IMG/VR virus record: IMGVR_UViG_3300050015_000276
Location: 64,001 to 128,000 of that record
Source of the DNA: a virus
DNA: 64,000 bases
Reading direction: 5' to 3' (one strand)
Both the position numbers and the translations under genes were made by a program. This document shows, in pieces, positions 20,029 to 36,294 of the stretch. The notes under the pieces were generated by a model that saw nothing but the letters and a program-made list of their open reading frames with translations, was not told where the DNA came from and made no database searches. Each line of letters begins with the position of its first letter. Positions within the stretch are counted from its first letter, which is position 1.

Positions 20029-21381
20029 ATGATTACCACAGATAAGCTCGTTGACAAATGGGCCGAGGTTCTTGACGACGAAAATTTTGGCAAATTGACT
20101 AATCGCCACAAACGCCGTGTAGTTGCGACGGTTATGGAGAATCAGCAAGTTGAGTTTGAAAAGACTCGCCAAATTCTTTCAGAGTCCGCTCCAACCCTTA
20201 GTACAGGTGCTGGAATTGCAAACTTTGACCCCATTCTAATTTCATTGGTACGCCGGGCTATGCCCAACTTGATTGCTTATGATGTTTGCGGTGTTCAACC
20301 AATGGTTGGACCAACCGGACTCATTTTCGCAATGAAATCGCGTTATCAATCCAAACAAGGTACAGAAGCTCTATTCAATGAAGCGAATACCGCTTTCACT
20401 GGACAAGATCCTAATGGACCTTATGGCCAAACTTGGGGTGCGCCAAATTCAACCGGTGCAACACAAACATTCTCAGGTGCAACACCTCATGCCGGTACTG
20501 ATCCTGTAGCAACTGGATTTCCTCCAACCGCTTCTGGTTATACAACTGGCCGTGCGATGCGTACTCAAGAAGCCGAAGCATTAGGCGATGGTGTGGGAGC
20601 AGACTTTAATCAAATGGCATTCAGCATTGATAAAATTTCTGTCGAAGCAAAGACCCGTGCATTAAAAGCTGAGTATTCTGTAGAAGTTGCTCAAGACTTA
20701 AAAGCTATCCATGGTCTTGATGCCGAAACCGAATTAGCTAATATTCTTTCCGCTGAAATCTTAACCGAAATCAATAGAGAGATTATCCGCACAATCTATT
20801 ATATTGCTGTCCCTGGCGCCGCACAAACTACAAATCCTGGTGTGTTTGACTTGGATGTAGATGCAAATGGTCGTTGGTCAGTTGAGAAGTTTAAGGGTTT
20901 GATGTTCCAAGTGGAACGCGAAGCCAATGCGATTGCGAAGGCTACACGTAGAGGCCGTGGGAATGTTATCATCTGTTCTAGTGACGTGGCAAGCGCATTA
21001 GTAATGGCTGGTAAATTAGATTATACTCCTGCGCTTCAGAATGATTTAACTGTTGACGATACTGGCAATACCTTTGCTGGTGTATTAAATGGTAGATTCC
21101 GCGTATATATCGATCCTTACTTCGGTAATGGTGGTGTTAATGAGGAATTCTTATTGGTAGGATATAAGGGCGCCAATGCATACGACGCGGGCCTTTTTTA
21201 TTGTCCGTATGTACCCCTACAATTATTCCGCGCTCAGGATCCACACAGCTTCCAGCCAAAAATTGCATTCAAAACCCGTTACGCAGTTGCTCCAAATCCA
21301 TTCTGGTCGGATGCTAATGCCACTCTTCAAGCTAATAGTTCCGCTTATTATAGAATGATCCGAATTATAAATCTTCTATAA
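20029..21381 (+). CDS. gp23: Major capsid protein gp23
   Basis: FDPILISLVRRAMPNLIAYDVCGVQPM.GPTGLIFA, RALKAEYSVE.AQDLKAIHGLDAETELANILS, FYCPYVPL. Confidence 0.98.
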   Translation: MITTDKLVDKWAEVLDDENFGKLTNRHKRRVVATVMENQQVEFEKTRQILSESAPTLSTGAGIANFDPILISLVRRAMPNLIAYDVCGVQPMVGPTGLIFAMKSRYQSKQGTEALFNEANTAFTGQDPNGPYGQTWGAPNSTGATQTFSGATPHAGTDPVATGFPPTASGYTTGRAMRTQEAEALGDGVGADFNQMAFSIDKISVEAKTRALKAEYSVEVAQDLKAIHGLDAETELANILSAEILTEINREIIRTIYYIAVPGAAQTTNPGVFDLDVDANGRWSVEKFKGLMFQVEREANAIAKATRRGRGNVIICSSDVASALVMAGKLDYTPALQNDLTVDDTGNTFAGVLNGRFRVYIDPYFGNGGVNEEFLLVGYKGANAYDAGLFYCPYVPLQLFRAQDPHSFQPKIAFKTRYAVAPNPFWSDANATLQANSSAYYRMIRIINLL

Positions 21382-21408
21382 TCAGTAACTTACAGATATT
21401 TCTTTCGA

Positions 21409-21440
21409 AAGGGGAAACCTTTTGGTTTCCCCTTCTTTTT
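21409..21440 (+). terminator. Rho-independent terminator after gp23
   Basis: aaggggaaacc-tttt-ggtttcccctt (11-bp stem) followed by cttttt. Confidence 0.85.
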
Positions 21441-21556
21441 GATTAATATCAATTGAAGTCAAACATACAAAACCAACATAAAATCAAGTTCTTTTTGAAT
21501 TTTCTTGTTATTCATCCCACGATATGCTATAATCTAAATATGAGTAACACAATCAA

Positions 21557-22207
21557 ATGCAACCAAACATACAAAACTCATTCTTAAATAACAAATACAC
21601 TAAAACTTACATTCGTATCACAGAACGTGCCAAGGACAGGATAATTCCTTTTGGTTACACCGAAAAACATCATATAATTCCAAAATGTAAACCATTTTGT
21701 GGACCAAACACAAAAGAAAATCTGGTCTCCTTATCATTCAAAGAACATTTGGTCTGTCATCATCTGTTACTGAAAATGTGTAAAACAAAATTAGAGAAAA
21801 TGAAAATGTATTATGCATTTAACCGAATGGGGCAAACAAGTTCAAATAATAAAAGGATTATTAATCTTAAATCTTATGACAGAATTAAGACTTATTATTA
21901 TGAATTAGGTTTAGGACGAATACCTTGGAATAAAGGTAAAAAAGGTAATAACCTTAAAAAAGAAACATGTATAAAAATGTCTTTGAGCAGAATTGGAAAT
22001 AAAAATAATTTAGGAAATTTTTGGTCTAAAGAAACTTATAACAAAAATTGTTGCAATTATAAAATAACTTTTCCCGACGGACACACCGAAATTGTAAATA
22101 ATTTGAGGCAGTTTTGTAAATATAATAATTTAAATTCAGGAAATATGAATCAAGTAGCTTTAGGTAATTTTAAACAACATAAAGGTTTTAAAGCCACCAA
22201 ATTATGA
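21557..22207 (+). CDS. HNH homing endonuclease (paralog of 4664-5494)
   Basis: YTEKHHIIPKCKPFCGPNTKENLVSLSFKEHLVCHHLL. Confidence 0.9.
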   Translation: MQPNIQNSFLNNKYTKTYIRITERAKDRIIPFGYTEKHHIIPKCKPFCGPNTKENLVSLSFKEHLVCHHLLLKMCKTKLEKMKMYYAFNRMGQTSSNNKRIINLKSYDRIKTYYYELGLGRIPWNKGKKGNNLKKETCIKMSLSRIGNKNNLGNFWSKETYNKNCCNYKITFPDGHTEIVNNLRQFCKYNNLNSGNMNQVALGNFKQHKGFKATKL

Positions 22208-23568
22208 GAAGAAAAACAACCCAAGAATTTATTGAACAAGCAGAAAAATTATATCCGGGAAAATATTCTTATAAGAACACCGTTTATATAAAAAATTCTT
22301 CTTTAGTTAAAATACATTGTAACCTACATAATCTAGATTTTGAACAATCACCAGCAAATCATTTAAATTTTGAAGGATGTCCGGAATGTTTTTCTAACGC
22401 TCAACGAATAAAATTTTCCAAAACATCAGAACAATTTATAAAAGACGCTCAGGAAATTCATGGAAATAAATACGACTATTCTAAAACCAAATATAAATCT
22501 ATTTTAGAAAAAGTAGAAGTTATTTGTCCCGAACATGGTTCTTTTTTTGTATATCCGACAAATCATTTGAGAGGATGTGATTGTCAAAAGTGTGGTTATA
22601 ATAAAATTGCCGGAGGTTATTTTAATAAGTTTTTCCAAAAATATCCAGAAAAGAAAAATGAACCCGCAGTTATATATTTTTATAAATTTGAAAGACTAGA
22701 TGGAACTTATTTTTATAAATTAGGTATATCTACAAAAATTAAATATAGATATTCGGATAAACAATACAAAGCATTTAAAATTTCTATTATTTGGGAAGAA
22801 AATATGTCTTTATTCCAAACCTGGAATTATGAAAATATTTTAACTAAACTGTGGGAAAACTATCATTATACTCCACCAGAATCATTTAATGGAAAAACAG
22901 AATGTTATTCTAAAGAATTTTCTAAACCAAATTTTATTAATATATTTGATCATGAGTGGGAAAAGAAGAAAGAAATTATAATATCCAGATTTAATATCAA
23001 AAATCAAATAAACCAAAATATTATTCAAAAAATTCCTGCCAGAAAAACCACAATAAAAATAATTAATAAGACTGAGGCTTATAATTTTTTAGAACAAACA
23101 CATATTCAAGGATCTGTTAATTGTTCTATAGCTATAGGATTATATTTTAAAGAAAAATTAGTTTCTATAATGACTTTTGGTAAACCAAGATATTCTAAAT
23201 ATGACTGGGAATTATTACGTTTTTCGTCTGCACTAAATACTATTGTTGTTGGTGGTGCTTCTAGATTATTTCATTTTTTTACAAACGAATTTCATCCAAA
23301 AAATGTCATTTCGTATTCAGATAACAGATGGAATAAAGGAAATATATACGAAACTATTGGAATGAAATTTCTTCATAATTCTGATCCGAATTATTGGTAT
23401 ATTAAAGACGATAAGATATACTCAAGAATAAAATGTCAAAAACATAAATTACCAAAATTATTGGAAAATTTCAATCCAAACCAAACAGAATTACAAAACA
23501 TGACAAATAATGGTTTTAAAAAGGTAATTGATAATGGTAATAGTGTCTTCTTATTTGAAAATTCTTAA
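22204..23568 (+). CDS. Homing-endonuclease-like multidomain protein: DUF723-like Zn repeats + GIY-YIG-like segment + C-terminal Hef/Mom-like (GNAT-fold) domain
   Basis: KYDYSKTKY...ICPEHGSF...NHLRGCDCQKC; IYFYKF...YKLGIS; NFLEQTHIQG...ELLRF...VVGGASRLF...ISYSDNRW..GNIY. Confidence 0.7.
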   Translation: MRRKTTQEFIEQAEKLYPGKYSYKNTVYIKNSSLVKIHCNLHNLDFEQSPANHLNFEGCPECFSNAQRIKFSKTSEQFIKDAQEIHGNKYDYSKTKYKSILEKVEVICPEHGSFFVYPTNHLRGCDCQKCGYNKIAGGYFNKFFQKYPEKKNEPAVIYFYKFERLDGTYFYKLGISTKIKYRYSDKQYKAFKISIIWEENMSLFQTWNYENILTKLWENYHYTPPESFNGKTECYSKEFSKPNFINIFDHEWEKKKEIIISRFNIKNQINQNIIQKIPARKTTIKIINKTEAYNFLEQTHIQGSVNCSIAIGLYFKEKLVSIMTFGKPRYSKYDWELLRFSSALNTIVVGGASRLFHFFTNEFHPKNVISYSDNRWNKGNIYETIGMKFLHNSDPNYWYIKDDKIYSRIKCQKHKLPKLLENFNPNQTELQNMTNNGFKKVIDNGNSVFLFENS

Positions 23569-23611
23569 ATTTAAAATAACTCTAAATATTCTCAGAGGTT
23601 CGCCAAGTCAA

Positions 23612-24676
23612 ATGTTCAAAAAGATCTGGTATAAAATGTTGAAAAAACCTTTACCTAAAATTCCAAAAGTCTTAATAACTTTCAAACATCCAAAAACCGA
23701 TTTACCTACAGCTTGTCACGAAGGATTAGGAGTAACAGCATTACACCTAACAATGTCATTAAGAGAAATAAATGTTAATGTTGATTGTTTTCCTATTTCT
23801 AATGGCGAATTTCTCTGGAAAAAATTATTAAAAGAGTGGGCCTCATATACTCATGTTGTTATGTGCGCTCCTTTTATAGATTCTGTTTTCATAGAGAAGC
23901 TAGTATCTAATTTTCCTTCAATAAATTTCACTATCGTTTATCATTCTAATTTAGGATTCTTAAGCCAAGATCGTTTTGCAGTTTCTTCTTTACTTCCATT
24001 TTTTGAAATCGAATCAAAATATCCAAATTTTAGAGTAGGAACAAATTCAGAAGAATTCTCAAATGCTATTGAGCAGGCGTCAAATCGGAAATTCCTTTAT
24101 TTGCCAAATCTTATTCATTTGCCTTATGGTGTAAGGCGCCAACGCCCCAAAAACAAATCAAATGTAATTCATGTTGGTTTATTTGGAGCTTCTAGAGTAT
24201 TAAAAAATTGGTTAACGGCAACTGTGGCTGTTATGATTATTGCCAATAAAACAAAGAAACAAATAGTATTTCATGTATCTAGTAAACGAGATGAAGGTGC
24301 ACTCCATACTCGGTCAAATATGACAGATTTATTAAAATTGAATACTCATGTTAGTTTGGTAGATGTTCCTTGGTTAGATCATGATGATTTCATTCGTTAT
24401 TTATATTCAATGGATCTTTTATTACAGCCTAGTTTTACTGAAACATTCAATAATGTGACGGCCGAAGGATGTCTTTGTGGTGTGCCCAGTGTGGTTTCTG
24501 AAGCTATATTTTGGGTTCCTGATACTTGGAAAACAAATGCTGATAGTGCGGTAGATATTGCAAATGTAGGTATAAAATTACTAAACGACAAATCAGCTAA
24601 TTTAGATGGTTGGAAAGCATTAAATAATTACAATAAAAAATCTGAAAAGCAATGGTTAACCTGGATTAATTCTTAA
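23612..24676 (+). CDS. Glycosyltransferase, GT-B fold (GT4-like)
   Basis: DLLLQPSFTETFNNVTAEG...GVPSVVS (E-x7-E motif); start reassigned to MFKKIW after TAAATA 23583. Confidence 0.8.
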   Translation: MFKKIWYKMLKKPLPKIPKVLITFKHPKTDLPTACHEGLGVTALHLTMSLREINVNVDCFPISNGEFLWKKLLKEWASYTHVVMCAPFIDSVFIEKLVSNFPSINFTIVYHSNLGFLSQDRFAVSSLLPFFEIESKYPNFRVGTNSEEFSNAIEQASNRKFLYLPNLIHLPYGVRRQRPKNKSNVIHVGLFGASRVLKNWLTATVAVMIIANKTKKQIVFHVSSKRDEGALHTRSNMTDLLKLNTHVSLVDVPWLDHDDFIRYLYSMDLLLQPSFTETFNNVTAEGCLCGVPSVVSEAIFWVPDTWKTNADSAVDIANVGIKLLNDKSANLDGWKALNNYNKKSEKQWLTWINS

Positions 24677-24700
24677 GTTTTAATTCATATAAATACCTTT

Positions 24701-24916
24701 ATGACCTTAAATATACTTCATGGAACAGGATACCGAGTGGGTGAATCTGACAGAGTAATTGGATCCTCTATACCCAATCAACCTGATGGATTTATAGTTA
24801 TTAACCAACAAAATGGAAAAATATTCATATACTCTGGTGGTGTATGGACTGATGGTGGTACTTTTCCAAATGCATTTTTTACTCAAGACAATTTAGATTT
24901 GTGGATTTTAAGTTAA
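24701..24916 (+). CDS. Small late protein, paralog A
   Basis: YRVGESDRVIG...PDGFIVIN...SGGVW; follows TATAAATA-N5. Confidence 0.7.
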   Translation: MTLNILHGTGYRVGESDRVIGSSIPNQPDGFIVINQQNGKIFIYSGGVWTDGGTFPNAFFTQDNLDLWILS

Positions 24917-24918
24917 AT

Positions 24919-25203
24919 ATGTCTGTTGCTGCTTATCACACACCCAAATATCGCGTAGGAAATTCATCAAGAACATTAGGAGATTCTACTAATGATCCTG
25001 AAGGATTCATTGTGCTCAATTTAAGTACATTGCAATGTTTTCAGGTTTCTGGTGGTGTTTGGATTAATTTTGGGCTTGTACCTTTGGCTTTAGTTACTGT
25101 GTGGAATTTACCTGCTAGTTTGGCTAATCTTTCTTGGAGCGGTATAACCGAATCACAATGGGCTAATATGACATCTGACCAATGGTCTTCAATAAAAGAA
25201 TAA
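24919..25203 (+). CDS. Small late protein, paralog B
   Basis: [11 protein letters not shown]...PEGFIVLN...SGGVW; C-terminal W-rich repeat [19 protein letters not shown]. Confidence 0.7.
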
Positions 25204-25210
25204 GGAACAC

Positions 25211-26104
25211 ATGAAAATACTCTTACTTTTAATGGCTGCATCAGGTATTATGTGGGGACAATGCCCCACAATACCGGCCACACAATATTCAGCATTAAAT
25301 ACTTTTATTAGTTCCAAAATATGTGGACTTTCTGGAACAGTTGCACCAACAGCATCGTGGTGTACAACTGCATTAGTAGGACTTGCAACATATACAAATA
25401 CAACTACAAGTATAATTTATGATTGTACTGCAAATCTTACATGGACACCTCGATCCATACCAGTATCAATTATTAATCAGAGAGGAATATTTAATTCTAG
25501 TACAATATATTCTACTGGCGATGAAGTAGGATATGGTACTCCAACAACACTTTTCATTTCATTAATTGATAATAATAGTGGAAATACACCTTCCGGTAAT
25601 TCTATATACTGGGCAATTCCAGGTCCTCAAGGTCCTGTTGGAGCTACTGGACCTCAAGGGGATACTGGACCTCAAGGTCCTGTTGGAGCTACTGGACCTC
25701 AAGGAACTACAGGAGCTACTGGCCTTACTGGTCCACAAGGACCTACAGGAAATACCGGCCCACAAGGTGCCACTGGTCCTCAAGGTCCTGTTGGAGTTAC
25801 TGGATCTCAAGGGTCTACTGGACCTCAAGGAACTACAGGAGCTACAGGGCCTCAAGGAGCTACTGGCCTTACTGGTCCACAAGGACCTACAGGAAATACC
25901 GGCCCACAAGGTGCCACTGGTCCTCAAGGATCTACAGGGCTTGGATGGATAATAAATCATGGTATTGGTGTACCAAATAGTGTATGTTCTGCTTCTGCTC
26001 AATATTGGGACATTAGTGTAACTCCACAAACATTGTGGATTTGTTCTTACGGTACAACAGGAAATAATGGTGTTTGGCAACTTATAAATACAACAGTTCC
26101 TTAG
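25211..26104 (+). CDS. Collagen-like protein with N-terminal signal peptide
   Basis: [16 protein letters not shown]|Q; about 36 Gly-X-Y triplets ([10 protein letters not shown]...). Confidence 0.88.
25712..25929 (+). repeat. 74-bp exact direct repeat inside the collagen region (25712-25785 and 25856-25929)
   Basis: ggagctactggccttactggtccacaaggacctacaggaaataccggcccacaaggtgccactggtcctcaagg read twice. Confidence 0.9.
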
Positions 26105-26112
26105 GATTTAAT

Positions 26113-26880
26113 ATGAAATATATTTTTATATTACTTCTAATACCTTTTTCTTTATTGAGTCAACAATTGCGCACATGTGGTTATAGGGCATCAGATAAAC
26201 CAGGAGATTGTCTTGGTTGGGTTACTCAGGGATTAACAATAACACAAGTAACCAACCTACCTAAAGTTTCAATAATGTCGCCATTTTATGATGTGATTGA
26301 TGGTATATCTGAAACAGATTGTACTATAGGAAATAATGGTACACCATTGTATCACGTACTTTGTGGACCTAATTCTACCGGAACTTCTTGGGTAGCATAT
26401 GGTGGAAGTGGTGGAAGTGGTACTATGTCTTGGCCGAACAATATTGGTATTGCATTATATGGTGGTAATAATACATGGGGAAATTCTCTTGGATTAGTTA
26501 CTAACATAAATATTTTAGGGTCGGATAATAATATCCCAAGTGAAAAGGCTGTCCGTACAGCTATTGATGAAATTTCTTCGCCGCATTATTCTATTGTGGG
26601 GTGGTCAGCAACTCCCACAATAGATATGGCAATTGCTAAAAGTTTTAAAATTACATTAACTGGAGATGTAACCACCTTATCATTTCCTACAATAACGGCA
26701 GGTATCGGAGTTACCATTATTATTTGTCAAGATTCAACTGGAGGCCATTTTCTAACATGGCCAAGTACAATACATGGAGGAATTGTGATTGGATATCAAA
26801 AAAATAAATGTTCTGTACAAGATTTTATAAGTGATGGAGTAAACTTGTACGCTAGAACATTAGGAGTGATCGATCAATGA
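26113..26880 (+). CDS. Signal-peptide-bearing fibre-like protein
   Basis: MKYIFILLLIPFSLLS|Q; C-terminal ATPTID...ITLTGDVT...CQDSTGG..LTWP...DGVNLYA domain shared with 26877. Confidence 0.75.
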   Translation: MKYIFILLLIPFSLLSQQLRTCGYRASDKPGDCLGWVTQGLTITQVTNLPKVSIMSPFYDVIDGISETDCTIGNNGTPLYHVLCGPNSTGTSWVAYGGSGGSGTMSWPNNIGIALYGGNNTWGNSLGLVTNINILGSDNNIPSEKAVRTAIDEISSPHYSIVGWSATPTIDMAIAKSFKITLTGDVTTLSFPTITAGIGVTIIICQDSTGGHFLTWPSTIHGGIVIGYQKNKCSVQDFISDGVNLYARTLGVIDQ

Positions 26881-28139
26881 CGAAACAACTAACTAAATTA
26901 CTTATTTTTGGACTTTTAGGATTTTCTCTATATGGCCAAACTATTAACGGAGTACCTGTATCTAGCACTGGCATCGAACTTACAGCAAATAAAGATGCCG
27001 CGAGTGGATATGCCGGACTAACAGCGGGAACTCTTCTGAAAACGGCGGAGATGCCCGCGTTTACTGGTGATGCTACAACTGTAGCTGGTAACGTGGCGAT
27101 CACCGTAGCTAAGGTCAACGGGACTACAGTTCCGGTAAACTCGGCTGCCGACCAAGTGCTTCTAACGACAGCCTCGGCTACTGGGTCGTGGGGATCGATT
27201 GGTTCCTGTTCGGGGACCGGGCAGGCTTTGCAGTACAACACATCGACCCACGTTTTTGCCTGTGTGACTTTGGGCGTGGATGGATCAGGAACGGCGTCTC
27301 ACTTAGCCTACTATGCGGCAACAGGCTCAACCATTGCAGACGCTGGAGCCGATTTCACTTACGACGGGACGCACACGTGGTCCATGGGGGCATCTGGCAT
27401 CTTGGACTTACATGCTGCCGCTGTAGCCAACGTCAAGTTGCCGGGGGCGAGTACCACTGGGCTAGTGCGCGTGACAACCACAACAGGAGCCATAGGTAGC
27501 GCAGAGTTAAGTGGGGATGCTACGACCAATGCTTCTAATGCGGTTACGGTTGCTAAGATAAATGGAACATCTGTCCCAACTAATTCCGCTGCTGATCAGT
27601 TCCTTGGGACTACGGCGTCGGCAACTGGCGCGTGGGCATCTATAACAAATTGCCTAGACTCGGCTGGAAACCACTTAAATTACAACACCAGCACACATAC
27701 TTTTTCATGCGGTACTACTTCATCTGCGGCAGGCACAGTTACTTCGGTATCTGGAACTGCAAACCAGATAACCTCCAGCGGAACTTCTACTCCTACATTA
27801 TCTTTACCAGCTACAGTATTATTTCCCGGTATTTATCAGGATAAAGTTAATGCTGTTAGTTTCTCTGCTACTCCTGCCTTTGATCTGTCGGCAGGAAATA
27901 CAATCACTATTACTTTAACGGGTAATGTTACCGCTTCTACAATTACCAATCATGTTTCGGGCGAAAGAGTTAATTTCTTGGTTTGTCAAAATGGTACTGG
28001 TGGATATACATTTGCATGGCCCACAACTGTTAAAGGTGCGCCAACAGTAGGTACCACTTTAAGTACTTGTACTTCTGCTTCTTTTATTGATAATGGTACA
28101 AATCTTTATGCCACAGGTATCGGCAACGTCAACATGTAA
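26877..28139 (+). CDS. Signal-peptide-bearing fibre-like protein with two internal repeats
   Basis: MTKQLTKLLIFGLLGFSLYG|Q; GDATT...VAK.NGT.VP.NSAADQ.L.TTASATG.W...YNTSTH.F.C twice. Confidence 0.8.
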   Translation: MTKQLTKLLIFGLLGFSLYGQTINGVPVSSTGIELTANKDAASGYAGLTAGTLLKTAEMPAFTGDATTVAGNVAITVAKVNGTTVPVNSAADQVLLTTASATGSWGSIGSCSGTGQALQYNTSTHVFACVTLGVDGSGTASHLAYYAATGSTIADAGADFTYDGTHTWSMGASGILDLHAAAVANVKLPGASTTGLVRVTTTTGAIGSAELSGDATTNASNAVTVAKINGTSVPTNSAADQFLGTTASATGAWASITNCLDSAGNHLNYNTSTHTFSCGTTSSAAGTVTSVSGTANQITSSGTSTPTLSLPATVLFPGIYQDKVNAVSFSATPAFDLSAGNTITITLTGNVTASTITNHVSGERVNFLVCQNGTGGYTFAWPTTVKGAPTVGTTLSTCTSASFIDNGTNLYATGIGNVNM

Positions 28140-28154
28140 GAGCTAAATATGAAT

Positions 28155-28499
28155 ATGAAGATAATTTATACAATAATTTGCGTGATATTACTGTTTTCCC
28201 CGGTATTAGCACAAGCACAAAATAAACCTACAGAAGTAAAAACTACAGTGCCAAATATTAGTGAAGCGAAGCAAGTTAGTTATTGGTCAGCTAGAGCAGT
28301 AATGATGGATTCTAGGCTTCAATTGGCTAATTTACAACTATTAGGGGGTTCTGGAAAAGATTGGCAAACTGTTAATACTGATTTAAAAAATAGAGAAAGC
28401 AAATTTAATGAGATTGTAAAATCTATTGAAAATATTTGTACTATTGATATAAAATCTCTAAATTTGGGAGTATTAAAGTGCCAGGATACAACTCCATAA
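28155..28499 (+). CDS. Small secreted protein
   Basis: MKIIYTIICVILLFSPVLA|Q; ATG 5 nt after TAAATA 28144-28149. Confidence 0.75.
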   Translation: MKIIYTIICVILLFSPVLAQAQNKPTEVKTTVPNISEAKQVSYWSARAVMMDSRLQLANLQLLGGSGKDWQTVNTDLKNRESKFNEIVKSIENICTIDIKSLNLGVLKCQDTTP

Positions 28500-29443
28500 A
28501 GGTAGTATTAATATTAATATTATTAAGTGTTAGTTTGTATGGCCAGACCGTTAACGGGGTTCCAGTTATTATAACTGGAACCACGACCGTTAACGGTCAA
28601 ACCTGTAATTTAGGGTCATCATGCACCATTACTGCCAGTCCATCAGGTATTGTATCTGAAGCCTTAGGTGGAACTGGAACAAATAATACACCAGGGGCCG
28701 CCGGCCATATACTTCGTAGTAATGGCAGCCATTATATTGATTCGGCAATCCAGTCGGCCGATGTTCCTCCTATAATTGCTTATACTGTAACTACGGATTC
28801 TTCTACGGCCCGTACATTATCTGCAAATGATAATGCGACAATCATTTTATTTACATCTTCATCAACAATAACTGTAACTGTACCTGCAGGATTGGGTGCA
28901 GGATATAATGTTATTATAGAACAAGGTGGAACCGGAGTAATAAATTTTACAGGTTCGGGTACCACATTACATCAACTCATTGGATTTCCTAGTACTAATG
29001 GTCAATGGGCTAAAGTTCTCCTAACTTCTGATTCAGATACATCATGGGGATTAAGTGGTAATTTATTAGGAACCGTTACTCGTACCATAGGATGCGCTGT
29101 TGGAGATCCGGCTGGTTCAGCACTTGCTACGGGAATATTATGTTATGTTCCTGTACCGACAAGTTGCACGATTTCTTCCTGGGATATAAAAGTTGATTCT
29201 GGTACAGCAACAGTTGATATTTGGCAAACAGGATCAAGTACAACTTTGCCCACAATATCAAATACAATTACGGCTTCAGCTATACCAGCAATTGCAAGTA
29301 ATACAATGATAAATAGTACAACAACAACCGGTTGGGCAACTTCAAATGGTGGCCTTATATTATTAGCCAAAGATACTTTAGCTTTTAATTTGAAAACTAC
29401 CTCTGGACCGAAATACGTATACGCCGGTATACGTTGTGAATAA
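28478..29443 (+). CDS. Signal-peptide-bearing fibre-like protein; AT-rich paralog of the C-terminal half of 29464-31995
   Basis: GTG start with SD GGAG; VVLILILLSVSLYG|Q; shared AYTVTTD..TARTLS and IGC.VGDP.GSALATG.LCYV domains. Confidence 0.8.
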   Translation: MPGYNSIKVVLILILLSVSLYGQTVNGVPVIITGTTTVNGQTCNLGSSCTITASPSGIVSEALGGTGTNNTPGAAGHILRSNGSHYIDSAIQSADVPPIIAYTVTTDSSTARTLSANDNATIILFTSSSTITVTVPAGLGAGYNVIIEQGGTGVINFTGSGTTLHQLIGFPSTNGQWAKVLLTSDSDTSWGLSGNLLGTVTRTIGCAVGDPAGSALATGILCYVPVPTSCTISSWDIKVDSGTATVDIWQTGSSTTLPTISNTITASAIPAIASNTMINSTTTTGWATSNGGLILLAKDTLAFNLKTTSGPKYVYAGIRCE

Positions 29444-29463
29444 ATATGATTAGGAGATAATAA

Positions 29464-31995
29464 ATGAAATCGTTTCTATTAATATTTTGTGCCTTTTCTT
29501 TATGGGGACAAATTGTTGATCTACCGAACAATATACCCGTTAAGAATATACCTGCGGCAGTCAATCATAATATAACTGCTTTAAGAAATGCCGTTCCACA
29601 AAAATTCTTTGGAACTATAGCACCTGGTACAATTATTGGAAATCTTCCAGGAGATTGGTATTATGATACTTCGGCTCATAATGTTTATAAATGTGGCGCA
29701 CCTGCCAACACTGCCGCACCAGCATGTACTTCTGTAGATGTTGGAGGTTGGGAACAAATTGGTGCTGGAAGTGGAAATATAACTTATCCTGGTGCTGGTA
29801 TCCCACAATCTGTTGGTGGAACATCATGGGGCACGTCACTTGGTCTAGTAACTACAGTTGGTTCTCCTGGAACAGATACACATATAGCAACAGAAAAGGC
29901 AATTGCATCCGCTTTAAGTGGTAAGGCAAATGTGGGTTCTTACGCTCCTGCTACTAGTGGTTCGTCAATATTAAAAGGTAACGGTTCTGGAGGAACAGCA
30001 TCAGCAACTTATTCGGATATTGTTGGTTTATTCGCATCTGGATCTTGCAGCGGCTACCTAAAAAATGATGGAACATGCGGTTCTGGAGGAAGTGGGATGA
30101 CTTGGCCTACTGGATCTGGTATTGCGGTCTATAATGGAAGTGCATGGGGAACTTCACTTACAGCGCCGTCTAGTGCTTTAGTAGGCACTACCGACACACA
30201 AACACTTAGCAACAAAACAATAGATGGCGTGTCACCCACAACTTTAGCCTATGTAGACGCAACTTCAAGCGTCCAGACACAACTTAATAGCAAACAGGCA
30301 ACCATTAGCGGGGCCCCCAGCACGTGGCCCTCGCTAGGCACGGCCGCATCGCACGCAGTGGCCGATTTCGAGGCCGCACTTGGCAACCCCAGCGTAACGG
30401 GGTACATTCTGTCCTCCACCACGGGCGGGTCGCGCTCCTGGATTGCACCTGCTGCGGGCGGTGGAAGTATGACCTGGCCGGCGGCTGCCGGCGTCGCGGT
30501 GTATGGCGGCAGCAGCGCCTGGGGCTCATCGCTCCCAGTGGGCACGGGAGCCAATAATCTGGTGCAGCTTGATACGAGCGCGCACCTGCCAGCGGTCGAT
30601 GGATCGGCGCTTACGGGAGTAGTGGCGTCGGGTGTAGCTGGCCCTTCCGGTACCGCAGTCCTCGTAGAGGGCGCGGAGGGAGCGAAGCCCACAGCACCGG
30701 CCAGCGGCAGCGGGAATATCTGGTTCGATTCGACTAATCACCTCCCGCAGTACCAGGGAAGCGCGGGAACAATAATCGGCACGATGGTGGTTCCGGCAGC
30801 CGCGCGAACGGTGCATCAGTTCGCTACGCACATTCCGTCTACGGGGAGTGCGGGGACGGCGGCCATCGACAATTCCGATTTGCCAACCGCGGCGCTCAGT
30901 GGCGTGCTGATATACACCGCTGGCGTCCCGGCCGCTATCGGAACCTCGGCTACCAACTGCGTGCATGAGGATGGGAGCAGCGGCGGATGTGTGGCGTCGG
31001 TACCGGTGGCCTATACGGTTACGACGGACACCACCACGGCGCGCACGCTATCGAGCGGTGACAACGCCAGCGTGATCTCGTTCACGTCATCGTCACCCAT
31101 CACGCTGACCGTTCCCAGCGGACTCGGCGCGGGGTTCAACGCCATCGTGGAGCAGGCGGGCGCTGGCGTGGTGAGTCTGACGGGATCTGGCGCCACGCTA
31201 CACCAGCTTGCGGGAAGCGCCGCCACGGCGGGGCAGTGGGCCAAGGTGGGGATATATGCCACTACTGATACGAGTTGGCAACTGACCGGCGAGCTGGCGG
31301 GGACTTCCGGATTCGCCAATCCCATGACCGGAGTCGGTGATATGATTCGCGGCGGCGCATCGGGAGCGCCCACCGCGCTAGCCGCCGACACCAGCAATAC
31401 TCGCAAGTTCCTGCGGGAGCAATCGACCGGAGGAAGCCCCAACGCCCCGGCGTGGGACACGCTGCAATCTGGAGACATCCCGAATAATGCCGCCAATACG
31501 AGCGGTACAGCGGCCGACCTGTCCGCGACGCTCTCTATCGCCCACGGCGGTACGGCGCAGACCTCCGTGCCGGGTAGCAGTGGCAATTACGTCTACAACA
31601 ACGGGGGAGCGTACGGGGCGAAGGCGCTTACGCAGACCCACGCCATCGGGTGCGGCGTTGGAGATCCGCCGGGATCGGCGCTCGCTACCGGCGTGCTCTG
31701 TTATGTGGTGGCTGCCGCGGCCTGCACAATCCAATCCTGGGACATCCTGGTAGATGCGGGGACGGCGACGGTGGACGTCTGGAAAGTGGCCAGCGGCACG
31801 GCCGTACCCACGGTGAGTAATAGCATCGTGTCATCGGCGGCTCCAGCCATCAGCACGGGGACTTCGCTGCATTCGACCACGCTGACCGGCTGGACGACTG
31901 CCGTGGAGCAGTATGACCGGATCGGGTTCAACCTGACGACAACCTCGGGTCCTAAATATATTTACGTGGGGGTAAACTGCGATGAGAGTAAGTAA
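29464..31995 (+). CDS. Large signal-peptide-bearing Gly/Ser/Thr/Ala-rich fibre-like protein (843 aa), GC-chimeric
   Basis: MKSFLLIFCAFSLWG|Q; repeated MTWP..GIAVY.G..WG.SL motif; GC jumps near 30290. Confidence 0.85.
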   Translation: MKSFLLIFCAFSLWGQIVDLPNNIPVKNIPAAVNHNITALRNAVPQKFFGTIAPGTIIGNLPGDWYYDTSAHNVYKCGAPANTAAPACTSVDVGGWEQIGAGSGNITYPGAGIPQSVGGTSWGTSLGLVTTVGSPGTDTHIATEKAIASALSGKANVGSYAPATSGSSILKGNGSGGTASATYSDIVGLFASGSCSGYLKNDGTCGSGGSGMTWPTGSGIAVYNGSAWGTSLTAPSSALVGTTDTQTLSNKTIDGVSPTTLAYVDATSSVQTQLNSKQATISGAPSTWPSLGTAASHAVADFEAALGNPSVTGYILSSTTGGSRSWIAPAAGGGSMTWPAAAGVAVYGGSSAWGSSLPVGTGANNLVQLDTSAHLPAVDGSALTGVVASGVAGPSGTAVLVEGAEGAKPTAPASGSGNIWFDSTNHLPQYQGSAGTIIGTMVVPAAARTVHQFATHIPSTGSAGTAAIDNSDLPTAALSGVLIYTAGVPAAIGTSATNCVHEDGSSGGCVASVPVAYTVTTDTTTARTLSSGDNASVISFTSSSPITLTVPSGLGAGFNAIVEQAGAGVVSLTGSGATLHQLAGSAATAGQWAKVGIYATTDTSWQLTGELAGTSGFANPMTGVGDMIRGGASGAPTALAADTSNTRKFLREQSTGGSPNAPAWDTLQSGDIPNNAANTSGTAADLSATLSIAHGGTAQTSVPGSSGNYVYNNGGAYGAKALTQTHAIGCGVGDPPGSALATGVLCYVVAAAACTIQSWDILVDAGTATVDVWKVASGTAVPTVSNSIVSSAAPAISTGTSLHSTTLTGWTTAVEQYDRIGFNLTTTSGPKYIYVGVNCDESK

Positions 31996-32743
31996 ACCGA
32001 TTTCCTTGGCGGCATTGGTGCTGTGCTGTATGTGCTCAGTGTCTCAGGGCGCGATACGCTTTGTGGCGAGTGCTGTCGCACTTCGCTGTTCGCCAGCATT
32101 CTGCACTGCGACCACATCCGGCATCGACACGACCGGCGCGACTTTGCTCGTGGTCGCAGTGCAGCAGTACGCTATGTCTACCACTGGCGGTTATGCGGTT
32201 GTGGTTTCCGATTCCGTCGGCGGGTCCAGTAATACATGGACGGTCCTGACCAACTATGCGTCCAACGGCTCGGAGAACACCACGCTGTTCTACGCGGTTC
32301 CCACGCACACAGGCAGCGGTCACACCTTTAGCGTGTACGGATATTACGCATCGCTTGTCGTGGGGTCGTGGTCTGGAACGCTCGCGGCGTCGCCGCTAGA
32401 CGGCCAGGTTGGCTCGGGTAGTACGGGTGCTGTTGTGTCGTTTCAACCCGGCGCGCTGCTCCCCAGCGAAGACGGAGGCCTAGTTGTTGTGGCGGCCGTG
32501 GCCAATGCGGGGACGGACACTGCGATTGCGGTGGATGGGCCGTTCGCTGACAATCTGTTCGCGGAGGATGAGTCAGGGCAAACGCTAGCCATGTCATACG
32601 AGATTCAGACTACGGCCACATCCCGCAATCCAACTTGGTCCGGCCCAGGTAATTATGTTTATGCAGCAATCTCAGCAGTGTTTAAGCCAGCGGCGGGGGG
32701 CGGCGGGCCTGCGCCGCGCCGGAGGGTGGTGATCGTACAATGA
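31982..32743 (+). CDS. Secreted beta-rich protein (253 aa)
   Basis: MRVSKPISLAALVLCCMCSVSQG|A; IDTTGATLLVVAV..., ends GGGGPAPRRRVVIVQ. Confidence 0.75.
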   Translation: MRVSKPISLAALVLCCMCSVSQGAIRFVASAVALRCSPAFCTATTSGIDTTGATLLVVAVQQYAMSTTGGYAVVVSDSVGGSSNTWTVLTNYASNGSENTTLFYAVPTHTGSGHTFSVYGYYASLVVGSWSGTLAASPLDGQVGSGSTGAVVSFQPGALLPSEDGGLVVVAAVANAGTDTAIAVDGPFADNLFAEDESGQTLAMSYEIQTTATSRNPTWSGPGNYVYAAISAVFKPAAGGGGPAPRRRVVIVQ

Positions 32744-35598
32744 GAGCAGCTTTCTTGTTGCTCGCCTGCGCGATTGTGACATGGGCGCAAACGCCGGCGC
32801 ACACGCCGCACTATCCCAATACTTCAAACGGCCTCGTGATCTATGGGGCGATGCACCAGGAATCCTCGAATCTCTGGCCCTCCGTTAACACTTGGCTGGG
32901 TGCGCACTTCGACTGGATCGTAGGCGGCCCCGATCAGTACATCGGCTGGCAAAGTACGGGAGACCCTCATGGGTCTTATCCGACTAAGACGTATTGGGCC
33001 GCTTACCAGGACATTCCTTCCCAGCGGCCTACGGAGATGTATCAGCTTCAGGAGTCGGCGGTAGCCAGCTCCTTGACGCTGGAGGATATGTTTCTGCACT
33101 CCAGCGTGGATATGGCGTACGCGAGCGGCCAGAGCTACACATCTCGAACGAGCCAGTTCGACTTCATGGAGCCCTACTACCAGAACACCGGGAATGTGTA
33201 CCAAGGAGGCGTCTTCCTCTACAACGGGAGCGTCTATACGGACGTGACCTCGGACACGTGGCTAGGAGGCGCCACGACGATCTCCAATACGCTTTGCGTT
33301 GGTTCCATGGAACCATTCGATCAGATGAACCTAGTCATGGTGACGCCGCGCGCTGGCGGAACGGTGACATACAAGTATTGGAATGGAACCGCTTGGAGCG
33401 TCTTGACGCCGAACTCGGACGGGACTTCCGGCCTCACGACAGCGGGCAAGATTTACTTCTACCCGCCCCCGGACTGGACGGCGCGTACCCTGCCCGTCAA
33501 GGAGACGACGCCAGTCGCGATCCCCGTGACCACTTCCAAGTTCTGGGTACAGATCGTGGTGTCTGGCGCCACCACCGCGCCGGTATACTCGACAATCAAA
33601 GGTGATGACTGGTCGGTTTCTTCGAGCGGAAATAACTCTCGGGGTTGGAGCGCCACCGATTCGCATCGTATCAACGTGGGGACGCGTCTGGAGTACAACC
33701 CCACTCCACCGGCGAACGCTTCCGCCAAGTTCCGCTACCAGGCCCGCATTACCGGGTACGGGCTGAACCTCGCGTATGGGAACCCGGCCAATGTGCAGCG
33801 GGGCGTATATTCCTGGGGTCGATACCTGGCCGACATGATTGATAGCCACATTTCCCCGAGCGCGGATTGGGCGCAGCGCACCGGGGCGTTGAGCAATAAC
33901 TACGATGGGGCGTTCTTCGACGACGCCGGGCAAACCCCACCGACTCCGACTACGCCAGCGAATGCCACGCAATACTACGACAACTACACCAACTCGGCCG
34001 CATGGGTTTCAGCCTGGGCGGGAGCCTACGCGCAGACTATCTCAGATCTCAAGACCAGACATGGGACGGCATTTTCGGTGAGCACTAATGGGTCGATCCC
34101 GTGGAGTCCCGATGGTGTTGCGACATTGGGCGATGCCTCCCTGGTGGAGTGGAACTATAGCGGAGCGGGTTCTCCGGCCACGTGGTCCCCCTACCCGACG
34201 TACGGCTACGGCGCAGGGACAATCTATTACGACTGGGGCCTTCCGGCGCACAACCCAAACAGCACGAAGTTTTATTTCCAGTGCATCGACAATTGGAGCC
34301 TCGGGTTCTCTTGGTCGTACCGGCTTGGCACGACGAATTGGCACTATGGAGACAGCGGAAATCGGACTCCGCTTATGTGCTTGGCGATGCACTATCTAGG
34401 GTGGAATTCGAACACGGGTTTCAGCTACGACGGCAGCGGCGCGACGTTTGCCAATTATAGCACCGTCGATCAGGTCTACACGTACCTTCCGGCAACAACG
34501 CTGACATCCCCGGTATCTCCGAACAATACGTCTTGCAACTGGGGAAGCCTCACGTGCGATGCGCGGACGGTAACGTTAGCGAGCGCCGCCGGCTGCGGAA
34601 CATACATCCGTCTCGGACCAACGACCGGCGGCGACGACGTCTACGCGCTGCCAGCCGGGGTTAAAGTGTACGTCTACGGACCTACCGACGTCACGAATGC
34701 CAGTCTCACTGGATCGGGACGAATCGCTTTGCAGAGCGGCCCTGCAAGTTGGGCGGGAAGCGCTTCGAAATTTGCGAGCCTGACCTTTGGCGGAATTACC
34801 CCCGTGGCCGGACAATCCGTGACGTGGCAGTACTGGAATGGAAGCGCGTGGGCAGCTCTTTCCATGACCTCCGACGCCACATCCGGCCTGACGACGGACG
34901 GAACGGTGTCCTGGACGGCTCCCAGCGACTGGGCCGCCACAACTATCAGCGGGACGACGGCGTATTTCGTGCAATGGACCATCACGACTTCTGGGCCGTA
35001 CTTCTACTACTCCACTCTGCGTTCCGCCGATTGGAAGACATTCAGCACTACATACCCGATCTGGAACTCTTACTCCTCCGGCGACTCGGCGTCCTGCATT
35101 CAACAGCAGCACTTATCCACCATGGCGGACCCGCCAGCGTCAAGCGTGTACAGTTGGACGCGCTGGTTCCCCGCCATGGGGGTGGATATCGGAACCCCCG
35201 ATCCAAGCGGCCTCAACGGCGGCGCGCGCATGGTCGAGGCTCCCTGGAAGAAGGGCGGCTCGCCGGATTACATTTCCGGCCAGAGCCATGGGACGTGCGA
35301 CGCGTCCGGCTGTTCGGACCTGTGGCGGCGCGATTTCACGCAAGCGCTCGTCCTGTTCCGCCCGTGGAAAAACACGCTTTCCGAGGCCGAACTAGACACG
35401 CCCTCGCAGTCCATCGCGCTCGGTGGGACCTACTACCCACTGAGCGCGGATGGAACGATTGGCGGCGGCGTGACCAGCGTGGCGCTCCGGGGCGGGGAGG
35501 GAGCCATCCTGATGAAGTCCGGGGGAGCGCCGCCGGTAGTGTCCGGCGGGGCGGGCTCGATCCGGGGGACTCGGATCACGGGCGTTGTGATCCGCTGA
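32740..35598 (+). CDS. Large secreted protein, putative glycoside-hydrolase-like barrel with two inserted YWNG.AW repeats
   Basis: MRAAFLLLACAIVTWA|Q; YDGAFFDD, DLWRRDFTQALVLFRP (GHL15-like pattern); YWNGTAWSVL...SGLTT and YWNGSAWAAL...SGLTT. Confidence 0.7.
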   Translation: MRAAFLLLACAIVTWAQTPAHTPHYPNTSNGLVIYGAMHQESSNLWPSVNTWLGAHFDWIVGGPDQYIGWQSTGDPHGSYPTKTYWAAYQDIPSQRPTEMYQLQESAVASSLTLEDMFLHSSVDMAYASGQSYTSRTSQFDFMEPYYQNTGNVYQGGVFLYNGSVYTDVTSDTWLGGATTISNTLCVGSMEPFDQMNLVMVTPRAGGTVTYKYWNGTAWSVLTPNSDGTSGLTTAGKIYFYPPPDWTARTLPVKETTPVAIPVTTSKFWVQIVVSGATTAPVYSTIKGDDWSVSSSGNNSRGWSATDSHRINVGTRLEYNPTPPANASAKFRYQARITGYGLNLAYGNPANVQRGVYSWGRYLADMIDSHISPSADWAQRTGALSNNYDGAFFDDAGQTPPTPTTPANATQYYDNYTNSAAWVSAWAGAYAQTISDLKTRHGTAFSVSTNGSIPWSPDGVATLGDASLVEWNYSGAGSPATWSPYPTYGYGAGTIYYDWGLPAHNPNSTKFYFQCIDNWSLGFSWSYRLGTTNWHYGDSGNRTPLMCLAMHYLGWNSNTGFSYDGSGATFANYSTVDQVYTYLPATTLTSPVSPNNTSCNWGSLTCDARTVTLASAAGCGTYIRLGPTTGGDDVYALPAGVKVYVYGPTDVTNASLTGSGRIALQSGPASWAGSASKFASLTFGGITPVAGQSVTWQYWNGSAWAALSMTSDATSGLTTDGTVSWTAPSDWAATTISGTTAYFVQWTITTSGPYFYYSTLRSADWKTFSTTYPIWNSYSSGDSASCIQQQHLSTMADPPASSVYSWTRWFPAMGVDIGTPDPSGLNGGARMVEAPWKKGGSPDYISGQSHGTCDASGCSDLWRRDFTQALVLFRPWKNTLSEAELDTPSQSIALGGTYYPLSADGTIGGGVTSVALRGGEGAILMKSGGAPPVVSGGAGSIRGTRITGVVIR

Positions 35599-35715
35599 CA
35601 AGCGTATGAAGGGATTTATGTTAAGCAAACTTACGATGAGTTGTCAATCCTTATAAAGAGTTAATAAATTAGTATATTAAATTCTTAACTTAAAGTTGGA
35701 CTCATAAATATATTT

Positions 35716-36294
35716 ATGAGTCCAACTTTAAGTGGTATTTATACACGTCAACAAAAAAATGTAAATCCTTTATTACCAAATAAATTTACATTTATGCTCA
35801 CCAAGTTACCAGAATTATCAATGGCAGCTACAAGCTGTAATATTCCTGGTATTACTTTGCCAAATTGGAAACAATTGAGTCAATTTAATCCCATTCCACG
35901 ATCCGGTCTTAATCTTGAATATGAAGATTTAGAAGTCCGGTTCATTGTTGATGAAGATTTCAATAATTGGAGTGAACTTAATAATTGGATGAGATTGATG
36001 GCACTCTCAAAAGATAGTACTGAATATCAACAAGTAAAATTAGAACAATTACAACCTGGTCCTGAAGGTGGATTAGTATCAGATGCCCAAGTTGTTGTTC
36101 TCACTAACCAATCAGTTGCTAATATGGTATTTTACTTTCGTGATGCTTTCCCAGTTTATCTCAGTGAAATAGCTTTAACAAATTCAACAGATGATCCTAG
36201 TGTAATCGAATGTGTTGTACGTTTTGCCTACTCATACTACGAGTTCGAAAATGTTAATCCAGAACCATTAGACCCAACAGAACAGTCCTCATAA
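35716..36294 (+). CDS. gp3: Tail completion/tube-like protein gp3
   Basis: NPLLPNKFTF, SCNIPGITL, LEYEDLEVRFIVDEDFNNWSELNNWM, FRDAFPVYLS; synteny before uvsY. Confidence 0.85.
   Translation: MSPTLSGIYTRQQKNVNPLLPNKFTFMLTKLPELSMAATSCNIPGITLPNWKQLSQFNPIPRSGLNLEYEDLEVRFIVDEDFNNWSELNNWMRLMALSKDSTEYQQVKLEQLQPGPEGGLVSDAQVVVLTNQSVANMVFYFRDAFPVYLSEIALTNSTDDPSVIECVVRFAYSYYEFENVNPEPLDPTEQSS

Follow-up and report, generated by a model that had tools for sequence, protein, structure and literature searches.

Textbook accounts place the assembly of tailed phages wholly in the cytoplasm, and the fibres of T4, which lack leaders, are assembled there with gp57A, gp38, and gp63. Phage products that leave the cytoplasm include T5 Llp and Cor, small receptor-blocking lipoproteins that carry a lipobox and are encoded beside adsorption genes. 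Here, we describe a block of eight consecutive genes, g1 to g8, in a 64,000-nucleotide stretch of a T4-like phage genome (bases 64001–128000 of IMG/VR record IMGVR_UViG_3300050015_000276; hereafter the window, in whose coordinates positions are given unless stated otherwise). All eight genes begin with predicted Sec-type export leaders, and most encode fibre-like proteins. A fibre cassette with such genuine-looking export leaders in a T4-like phage challenges the all-cytoplasmic view of assembly.

Several described systems combine some of these traits. In Bacteroidota, the substrates of signal peptidase I expose Gln at position +1, a habit termed the Q-rule (Bochtler et al. 2018, PMC5837995; PMC10653852), and prophages of Porphyromonas gingivalis carry single, uncharacterised genes with Q-rule leaders, which their authors read as envelope modifiers (PMC10367356). 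The MAT fibres of Bdellovibrio bacteriovorus consist of a leader, a mosaic stalk resembling phage tail fibres, and glycan-binding tips (Caulton et al. 2024, PMC10769870). In the Cellulophaga phages phi18:3 and phi10:1, gp085–gp087 (L083:1892-7584) and gp091–gp094 (L084:1848-8879), respectively, are annotated as virion proteins from tandem mass spectrometry (MS/MS); the phi10:1 set includes a 'tail fiber protein' and a 'pectate lyase', and gp095 is annotated by similarity. Reading the N-termini of these proteins, we find that all start with Sec-type leaders with Gln at or next to the cut; the database records, from which the annotation is taken, mention no leaders.

The eight open reading frames (ORFs) of the present block lie on the + strand and fill positions 25211–35598, with short overlaps or gaps of at most 20 nt between them:

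25211..26104, + strand: g1, collagen-repeat fibre-like protein; 16-aa leader ending in WG, cut before Q; 6 Cys in the mature part.
26113..26880, + strand: g2, with a C-terminal domain in common with g3; leader ending in LS, cut before Q; 6 Cys.
26877..28139, + strand: g3, with G/S/T/A-rich repeats; leader ending in YG, cut before Q; 6 Cys.
28155..28499, + strand: g4, a mature protein of 95 aa without family match; leader ending in LA, cut before Q; 2 Cys.
28478..29443, + strand: g5, with a GTG start preceded 8 nt upstream by GGGAG; leader ending in YG, cut before Q; 6 Cys.
29464..31995, + strand: g6, an 843-aa mosaic fibre-like protein; leader ending in WG, cut before Q; 10 Cys.
31982..32743, + strand: g7; leader ending in QG, cut before A; 2 Cys.
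32740..35598, + strand: g8, with a (beta/alpha)8 glycoside-hydrolase-like barrel; leader ending in WA, cut before Q.

Leaders were called with our own heuristic for the n-, h-, and c-regions, not with a trained predictor, and the heuristic was run on all 274 ORFs of the genome, where it gave 20 loose hits. The hits include g1–g8 in unbroken succession; each of these has a K/R n-region, a hydrophobic core of ~8–14 uncharged residues, a small residue (G, A, or S) at position −1, and L, V, T, M, or S at position −3. Such a run of eight occurred in 0 of 1e6 permutations and has an analytic bound of 4.7e-8, which bears out an earlier note on this DNA that had read eight consecutive Sec-type signal peptides here; its statement that they are mostly cleaved before Gln also holds, with Gln at +1 in seven of the eight genes and Ala in g7 only. 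A lipobox Cys at +1 and a twin-arginine motif are absent from all of g1–g8, and a search of the eight for the PEP-CTERM signal (TIGR02595) gave no match.

The DNA around the leaders supports their translation. A Shine-Dalgarno-like motif precedes all eight leader-including starts, the GTG of g5 among them. Over 22 codons spanning the leader and first mature residues, g3 and g5 differ by 11 synonymous and seven non-synonymous changes, with four codons identical, so that 15 of 22 residues are kept, a pattern from which it follows that the leader is translated and under selection. Together with the run of eight, these two features and the retention of leaders by genes of phage-like G+C content at third codon positions (GC3) argue that the leaders are real. 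The mature proteins agree with this picture: Cys counts in g1–g7 are 6, 6, 6, 2, 6, 10, and 2, all even (P = 0.008), and the residues are locally paired; in most structural proteins recognised in this phage, Cys makes up 0–1%, and one exception reaches 2%. By sequence, the Cys pattern of g1–g7 thus resembles that of disulfide-bonded extracytoplasmic proteins. The products of g1–g8 are very probably exported by Sec and fold outside the cytoplasm, as the leaders and cysteines indicate.

Leaders of this kind recur in relatives of the block. An exhaustive search with g5 retrieved 3804 representative proteins; in the best 150, taken for a leader check, the heuristic found a leader in 106 (more are apparent by eye), and 78 of these 106 have Gln at the cut. 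More than 140 mosaic relatives of g6 contain short common modules at 60–80% identity, about two thirds of them bear leaders, and most of these are cut before Gln. Among the ~40 relatives of g8, nearly all full-length ones begin with a leader whose cleavage exposes Gln, and a conserved His-Thr-x-His motif comes next. In the homolog search proposed in the earlier note to look for co-conservation of leaders and for host lineage, leaders are common in the g5, g6, and g8 families, and the lineage of the g8 family points to Acidobacteriota.

Several relatives are encoded on phage contigs. On a siphophage contig (L031), P0133 lies between a J-like tail protein and an endolysin, and three further genes with leaders come after it. 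Terminase and portal genes flank P0075 and a neighbour that also has a leader (L032), and a contig of 83 kb (L030) carries P0046 together with a portal gene. An IMG/VR contig whose viral nature is less certain (L018) carries three leader-bearing genes and then a g8-like gene, and two phage-like contigs that may or may not be viral (L033 and L035) have four or five consecutive exported genes. The contigs that carry leader-bearing relatives all have a G+C content of 53–62%. Five exported proteins stand in tandem at L033:9971-17217, one of them lipoprotein-like and one with a twin-arginine signal. In a bacterial context, a Terracidiphilus genome (L003:525-15948), Mu-like early genes (repressor, transposase, and MuB-like ATPase) directly precede three leader-bearing genes; these, which include P0087, are followed by host genes, and head and tail genes are absent there.

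The mature proteins are diverse. Gly-X-Y collagen repeats occur in g1 alone among the eight, which matches the Pfam collagen repeat PF01391 (E 5.3e-16) and PHROGs phrog_819, 5073, and 6320 (E down to 3e-35). The C-terminal domain common to g2 and g3 is 37% identical over 93 aa; in g2, it weakly matches the tail-fibre family phrog_9017, and for g3, every one of the nearest ESM Atlas clusters is viral, 'phage tail fibre C-terminal domain' among them. Two C-terminal domains are common to g5 and g6, at 57–64% identity. The structural model of g5 is confident at residues 200–321 only, where it shows a C-terminal jelly-roll tip; comparisons of this tip with XepA/YomS, the fibre of phage 7-7-1, and carbohydrate-binding modules gave matches too weak (Z ≤8) to name a family. 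Searches of g2–g8 against Pfam, NCBIfam, and PDB sequences returned nothing beyond a weak TIG match of g5 and a weak match of the g8 profile to Pvc11. Between g1 and g6 there is no common N-terminal domain, and ~10 mature residues are common to g3 and g5 only. For g4, no relatives are detectable among the small leader-bearing neighbours at other loci; it is possibly a periplasmic partner or chaperone. The g7 family comprises ~230-aa proteins that are mostly leaderless, and the cut of g7 between Gly and Ala reproduces the usual N-terminus of the family. A 1238-aa metagenome protein (P0006) is a natural fusion of g7-like and g8-like parts behind a single leader, and we argue from it that g7 and g8 act together.

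The last gene of the block encodes a glycanase-like enzyme. An AlphaFold model of g8 (pLDDT 76) folds as a (beta/alpha)8 glycoside-hydrolase-like barrel, whose best match is the GH168 endo-fucanases (9jos; VIA Z 14.6, 320 residues aligned, rmsd 3.8), followed by other glycosidase barrels, among them Sph3 and TM1410 at Z ~10. Two inserted beta-sandwich domains (residues ~138–320 and 640–765) resemble a domain of phage LME-1 tail and injection-system baseplate proteins. We found no sequence membership of g8 in a Pfam, NCBIfam, or CAZy-type family, and against PDB sequences, its profile gave one weak match, Pvc11 (E 0.21). Residues E115, D168, D227, D394, and D498 are invariant in the family alignment. 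Among reference genomes, only those of Acidobacteriota (Bryobacteraceae, Terriglobia, and Acidobacteriaceae) and one of Fibrobacterota contain the family. At two independent loci, its neighbours are glycosyltransferases, a Wzy-type polymerase, and an initiating transferase, which marks both loci as exopolysaccharide clusters. By these sequence relationships, g8 descends from a leader-bearing bacterial family. The earlier description of the mature parts applies to the collagen of g1, the G/S/T/A-rich repeats of g3, the shared C-terminal domains, and the glycanase-like g8, while g4 and g7 are not fibre-like.

The record from which the window is taken is a complete virus genome of 179,687 bp with direct terminal repeats (completeness rated 100%). 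PHROG matches place genes for the tail sheath, portal, scaffold, and major head protein upstream of the block, and genes for a gp3-like tail-tube-family protein, UvsY, a UvsW-type helicase, and gp46 on its downstream side. The head protein is 57–58% identical to those of marine T4-like phages, and these matches together mark the phage as a T4-like myovirus whose genes are ordered as in the cyanophage/pelagiphage group. Compared with 50,697 GenBank phage records, the region gave no DNA match, and tblastn with g5 and g6 also found nothing. Among the large annotated ORFs, as distinct from a systematic search of the whole genome for fibres, a 1873-aa protein beside the baseplate genes is the sole other fibre-like candidate. 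A close relative is a 175-kb sister contig from a metagenome (L086, OCTA010000023.1), whose gp23, gp20, and gp3 are 94.7%, 91%, and 87% identical to those of the present phage. In the sister, gp3 directly follows gp23, which identifies the DNA between the two genes in the window as an insertion. The features of this insertion, apart from g1–g8, are as follows:

21382..35715, + strand: accessory insertion between gp23 (20029–21381) and the gp3-like gene (35716–36294), comprising two homing endonucleases, a glycosyltransferase-like gene, two small leaderless paralogues, and the eight leader-bearing genes.
21557–24676, left part of the insertion: two homing/HNH endonuclease genes and the glycosyltransferase-like gene.
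24688..24695, + strand: T4-type late-promoter-like motif TATAAATA, upstream of the block.
24701–24916 and 24919–25203, + strand: two small paralogous ORFs that lack leaders, with 45% mutual identity and without family match.
26083..26090, + strand: second late-promoter-like motif, directly before g2.
30200..35600, + strand: high-G+C segment, recognised by composition.
35693..35730: perfect 18-bp inverted repeat after g8, overlapping the start codon of the gp3-like gene.

The motif TATAAATA likewise precedes gp18, gp20, and gp23, and its count in the window shows no excess over chance. The inverted repeat after g8 is a possible terminator or regulatory hairpin. A scan of viral contigs for relatives of gp3 found none. 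The sister contig carries, between uvsY and uvsW (L086:8535-15522), a leaderless 861-aa collagen-type fibre and a 119-aa gene; the same site is empty in the window. At neighbouring hyperplastic sites, the two sister phages carry different fibre cassettes as alternatives.

The block is not a single unit but a mosaic. Its last 5.4 kb (~30200–35600) have a G+C content of 60–68% and a GC3 of 0.64–0.8, compared with a phage background GC3 of 0.2–0.33. This segment starts in frame within g6, near residue 245 and inside the fibre module that is shared most widely, and runs to just past the g8 stop codon; a smaller internal island of raised G+C occupies residues ~60–250 of g3. A phage-like GC3 of 0.13–0.22 characterises g1, g2, g4, g5, and g6 up to residue 240, after which the value within g6 rises to 0.7–0.8. 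Because of their phage-like codon use, we take g1, g2, g4, g5, and the 5' parts of g3 and g6 to be long-term residents under selection. The simplest reading of the sequence is that these old phage genes with leaders exchange DNA with a high-G+C host or prophage via shared modules. What the earlier note had called a 10-kb late operon is tightly packed, and the T4-type motifs are the only basis for 'late'; its unity is lost in the mosaic structure and the foreign composition of the last 5.4 kb. We regard the junction as a fibre cassette caught, in frame, in the act of recombining with high-G+C, host-type DNA.

The captured DNA also bears on the host, which sequence evidence suggests is probably an exopolysaccharide-rich Acidobacteriota bacterium. 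Four observations lead to this assignment: the taxonomy of the g8 family, the G+C content of the captured DNA, a PEP-CTERM protein of the phage, and exosortases in sampled Acidobacteriota. Specifically, a predicted 186-aa phage protein encoded outside the window (genome 43165–43725; L026:3165-3725) has an N-terminal leader and a PEP-CTERM signal, scoring 17.6 bits against TIGR02595 (cut-off 16), with a clear Pro-Glu-Pro, helix, and basic tail. Such cargo in a phage genome implies a host with exosortase, and exosortase genes are present in both of the two Acidobacteriota genomes sampled. The adjoining gene (genome 42516–43133; L026:2516-3133) is leader-bearing, cut between MA and Q, and without family match. 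A Bacteroidota host was considered and is less likely, given the 53–62% G+C of the relatives' contigs, the assignment of named relatives to Acidobacteriota and Desulfobaccales, and the PEP-CTERM protein.

An Acidobacteriota host would extend the known range of the Gln habit. The 2018 survey of the Q-rule did not include Acidobacteriota; it gave Gln at +1 in ~71% of cases for Bacteroidota and mostly <9–20% for Chlorobi, Chlamydiae, and Spirochaetes (PMC5837995). In random 400-kb samples of two Acidobacteriota genomes, crude heuristic leader calls had Gln at +1 in 11 of 40 (28%) for an Acidobacteriaceae genome (L037–L056) and in 15 of 44 (34%) for a Bryobacteraceae genome (L058–L077); these figures are to be set against the published values, as a 50-kb Escherichia coli sample gave two leader calls only. 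A gene for a plant-type glutaminyl cyclase (Glu_cyclase_2) was found in one of the two genomes, that of Acidobacteriaceae (L078). These counts suggest that the Q-rule may extend to Acidobacteriota in a weaker form. The data may thus carry the Gln-at-+1 habit from Bacteroidota to Acidobacteriota, and they hint at the hosts of an abundant set of soil phages.

Our tentative proposal, offered in the knowledge that it may well be wrong, is that the block is an exchangeable cassette for recognising and cutting host glycans, whose products are exported by Sec and matured in the periplasm and whose fibres dock onto particles at lysis. Transcription would take place late, alongside the structural genes, as the promoter motifs suggest. 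The products would be translocated by Sec and cleaved by the host signal peptidase I, and, if the analogy with the Q-rule holds, a glutaminyl cyclase of the host would turn the newly exposed Gln into pyroglutamate. In the periplasm, the proteins would then form disulfides and fold or trimerise, as the parity and pairing of the cysteines suggest, with g4 as a possible small partner. More speculatively, holin and endolysin would merge the compartments, upon which g1–g3, g5, and g6 could dock as side or tip fibres, and g8 with g7 could cut host exopolysaccharide, whether particle-bound or free. The cassette would be rebuilt over time as its shared fibre modules recombine with high-G+C DNA of a host or prophage. 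Of the exported appendage system put forward in the earlier note, export is well supported at the sequence level by the conserved leaders, purifying selection, paired cysteines, and the bacterial family of g8.

A number of observations weigh against docking. Past the leaders, we see no conserved adaptor domain at the N-terminus, and homologues of T4 gp9–gp12 or gp34–37 were not found, which leaves no docking site that could be named. Since the sister phage does without the block at this locus, such a particle can be built in its absence. A phage-encoded glutaminyl cyclase, DsbA, or signal peptidase was looked for in the genome and none was found, and leader cleavage, pyroglutamate, disulfides, and trimers are all predictions from sequence. 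By their relatives, g7 and g8 come from bacterial families with no link to virions, and one leader-bearing fibre-like relative, P0052, sits in a plain chromosomal setting beside a glycosyltransferase (L002). The MS/MS identification of the Cellulophaga virion proteins could reflect co-purifying envelope material and does not imply that leaders are cut. The slight lean to docking comes from the resemblance of the block to adsorption gear, the fibre-like position of similar genes in other phages, the scarcity of other fibre candidates among the large annotated ORFs, and the Cellulophaga virion proteins.

The strongest rival, which we take seriously while doubting it, keeps export and leaves the virion out: the fibres would mask a host surface glycan while g8 trims nascent or surrounding exopolysaccharide, or the products would be soluble at lysis. 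Progeny would then be kept from sticking to debris and slime, or competing phages would be blocked. The known exclusion proteins of lytic phages (T5 Llp, Cor, and T4 Imm/Sp) are early and small, which counts against this explanation. It draws support from the g8 family, which belongs to bacterial exopolysaccharide loci and bears the same leader there, from leader-bearing fibre-like relatives in chromosomal, non-phage contexts, and from the lack of a visible adaptor domain and the dispensability of the block in the sister phage. Precedents for it are the Bdellovibrio MAT fibres, which are leader-bearing mosaic fibres that work on the cell surface (PMC10769870), and the P. gingivalis prophage proteins taken to modify the envelope (PMC10367356). 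It fits less well with the structural-type late placement and promoter motifs of the block, and several different fibres with collagen stalks and swappable tips look more like adsorption gear. Moreover, the nearest clusters are viral tail-fibre families, leader-bearing designs occur in Cellulophaga virion proteomes, and none of g1–g8 has an outer-membrane sorting signal, whether PEP-CTERM or lipobox.

Two further explanations are unlikely. One holds that the proteins are ordinary virion fibres made in the cytoplasm, their hydrophobic N-termini being wrongly chosen starts, an assembly tether, or a propeptide removed in some other way. All T4-like fibres studied assemble in the cytoplasm, the collagen fibre of the sister phage is leaderless, and the automatic call of g5 (P0283) starts 19 residues downstream and omits the leader. 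This explanation is countered by the Shine-Dalgarno motifs at the leader-including starts, by the g3/g5 leader being kept through 11 synonymous changes, by the canonical n-, h-, and c-regions in all eight proteins with cores too short for a membrane anchor, by the even and paired cysteines, and by leaders, mostly with Gln at the cut, in ~70% of the 150 diverse g5 relatives. The other, similarly improbable, regards the block as passenger or 'auxiliary metabolic' cargo from Acidobacteriota, with no dedicated role in infection or with a boost to the host's use of polysaccharide. The 5.4-kb high-G+C segment has not adapted to the composition of the phage, the hyperplastic site lies next to homing endonucleases, the block is absent from the sister locus, and published work on peat viruses reads glycoside hydrolases as metabolic genes (PMC6172770). 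Set against these points are the phage-like codon use of g1, g2, g4, g5, and the 5' parts of g3 and g6, the operon-style tight packing behind late-promoter motifs, and the similar blocks on other phage contigs. That the high-G+C part is an assembly chimera, joined via a shared fibre repeat, is very improbable: the left junction does lie inside the most widely shared fibre module, a repeat type that can mislead assemblers, but the frame is open across it, the right boundary falls exactly after the g8 stop without a shared repeat, the genome closes with direct terminal repeats, and g3 has a second, smaller G+C island.

If the fibres do join the particle, virion assembly would have a second, extracytoplasmic branch, infectivity would be tied to the timing of lysis, and the fibres would gain disulfides and a blocked N-terminus, suiting acidic peat. 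It is conceivable, although we would not count on it, that the host-recognition fibres of this phage, like those of many uncultured phages infecting Acidobacteriota and Bacteroidota, are Sec-exported, cleaved by signal peptidase I, pyroglutamate-capped, and disulfide-bonded in the periplasm and join particles only at lysis. If the fibres stay off the particle, the block would represent a large undescribed class of phage-made proteins that act on envelope or slime. The earlier note had seen a candidate for an undescribed system, and in the literature, we found no paper describing fibre cassettes with export leaders in tailed phages. The block is, however, not unique, given the similar blocks on other phage contigs, and its component kinds are already known: Sec leaders, the Q-rule, mosaic fibres, polysaccharide hydrolases, and phage-encoded exported proteins.

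Compared with known systems, the block shares with T4 fibres and whiskers (gp34–37, gp12, and wac) and with cyanophage collagen-like fibres its late-type, fibre-like proteins, including the collagen repeats of g1, but g1–g8 lack Pfam or PHROG homology to the T4 fibre families, and all genes of the block bear leaders. T5 Llp and Cor are, like the block, phage-encoded, exported (a prediction for g1–g8), and encoded beside adsorption genes; they are small and have a lipobox, whereas here +1 is never Cys, six of the eight proteins exceed 250 aa, and most are fibre-like. The Sph3/GH135, TM1410-type, and GH168 hydrolases have the same barrel fold as g8, whose relatives lie inside exopolysaccharide clusters, yet g8 has no sequence-level membership in these groups and carries two inserted beta-sandwich domains. 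The MAT fibres offer a signal peptide, a mosaic stalk, swappable C-terminal tips, and folding outside the cytoplasm (predicted for g1–g6), but they are bacterial and have a conserved ~130-aa domain after the leader and often an S74 chaperone, neither of which occurs in g1–g6.

In Q-rule substrates and the P. gingivalis prophage genes, as proposed here, leader cleavage exposes Gln for a periplasmic cyclase that forms pyroglutamate, and phages follow the rule of their host; the Porphyromonas genes, in contrast, are single genes and not a fibre operon, and the host indicated here belongs to Acidobacteriota. The Cellulophaga phages phi18:3 and phi10:1 (NC_021794 and NC_021802) resemble the block in their consecutive large genes for fibre-like or polysaccharide-cutting proteins with Gln leaders, near the lysis genes. 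They differ in being podo- and siphoviruses of Bacteroidota, not T4-like myoviruses, and have no detected sequence similarity to it. To these cases, the present block adds a T4-like myovirus, a probable Acidobacteriota host, and a sister genome that shows the cassette to be swappable, and the Cellulophaga phages, being cultured, make the question of export and docking testable now.

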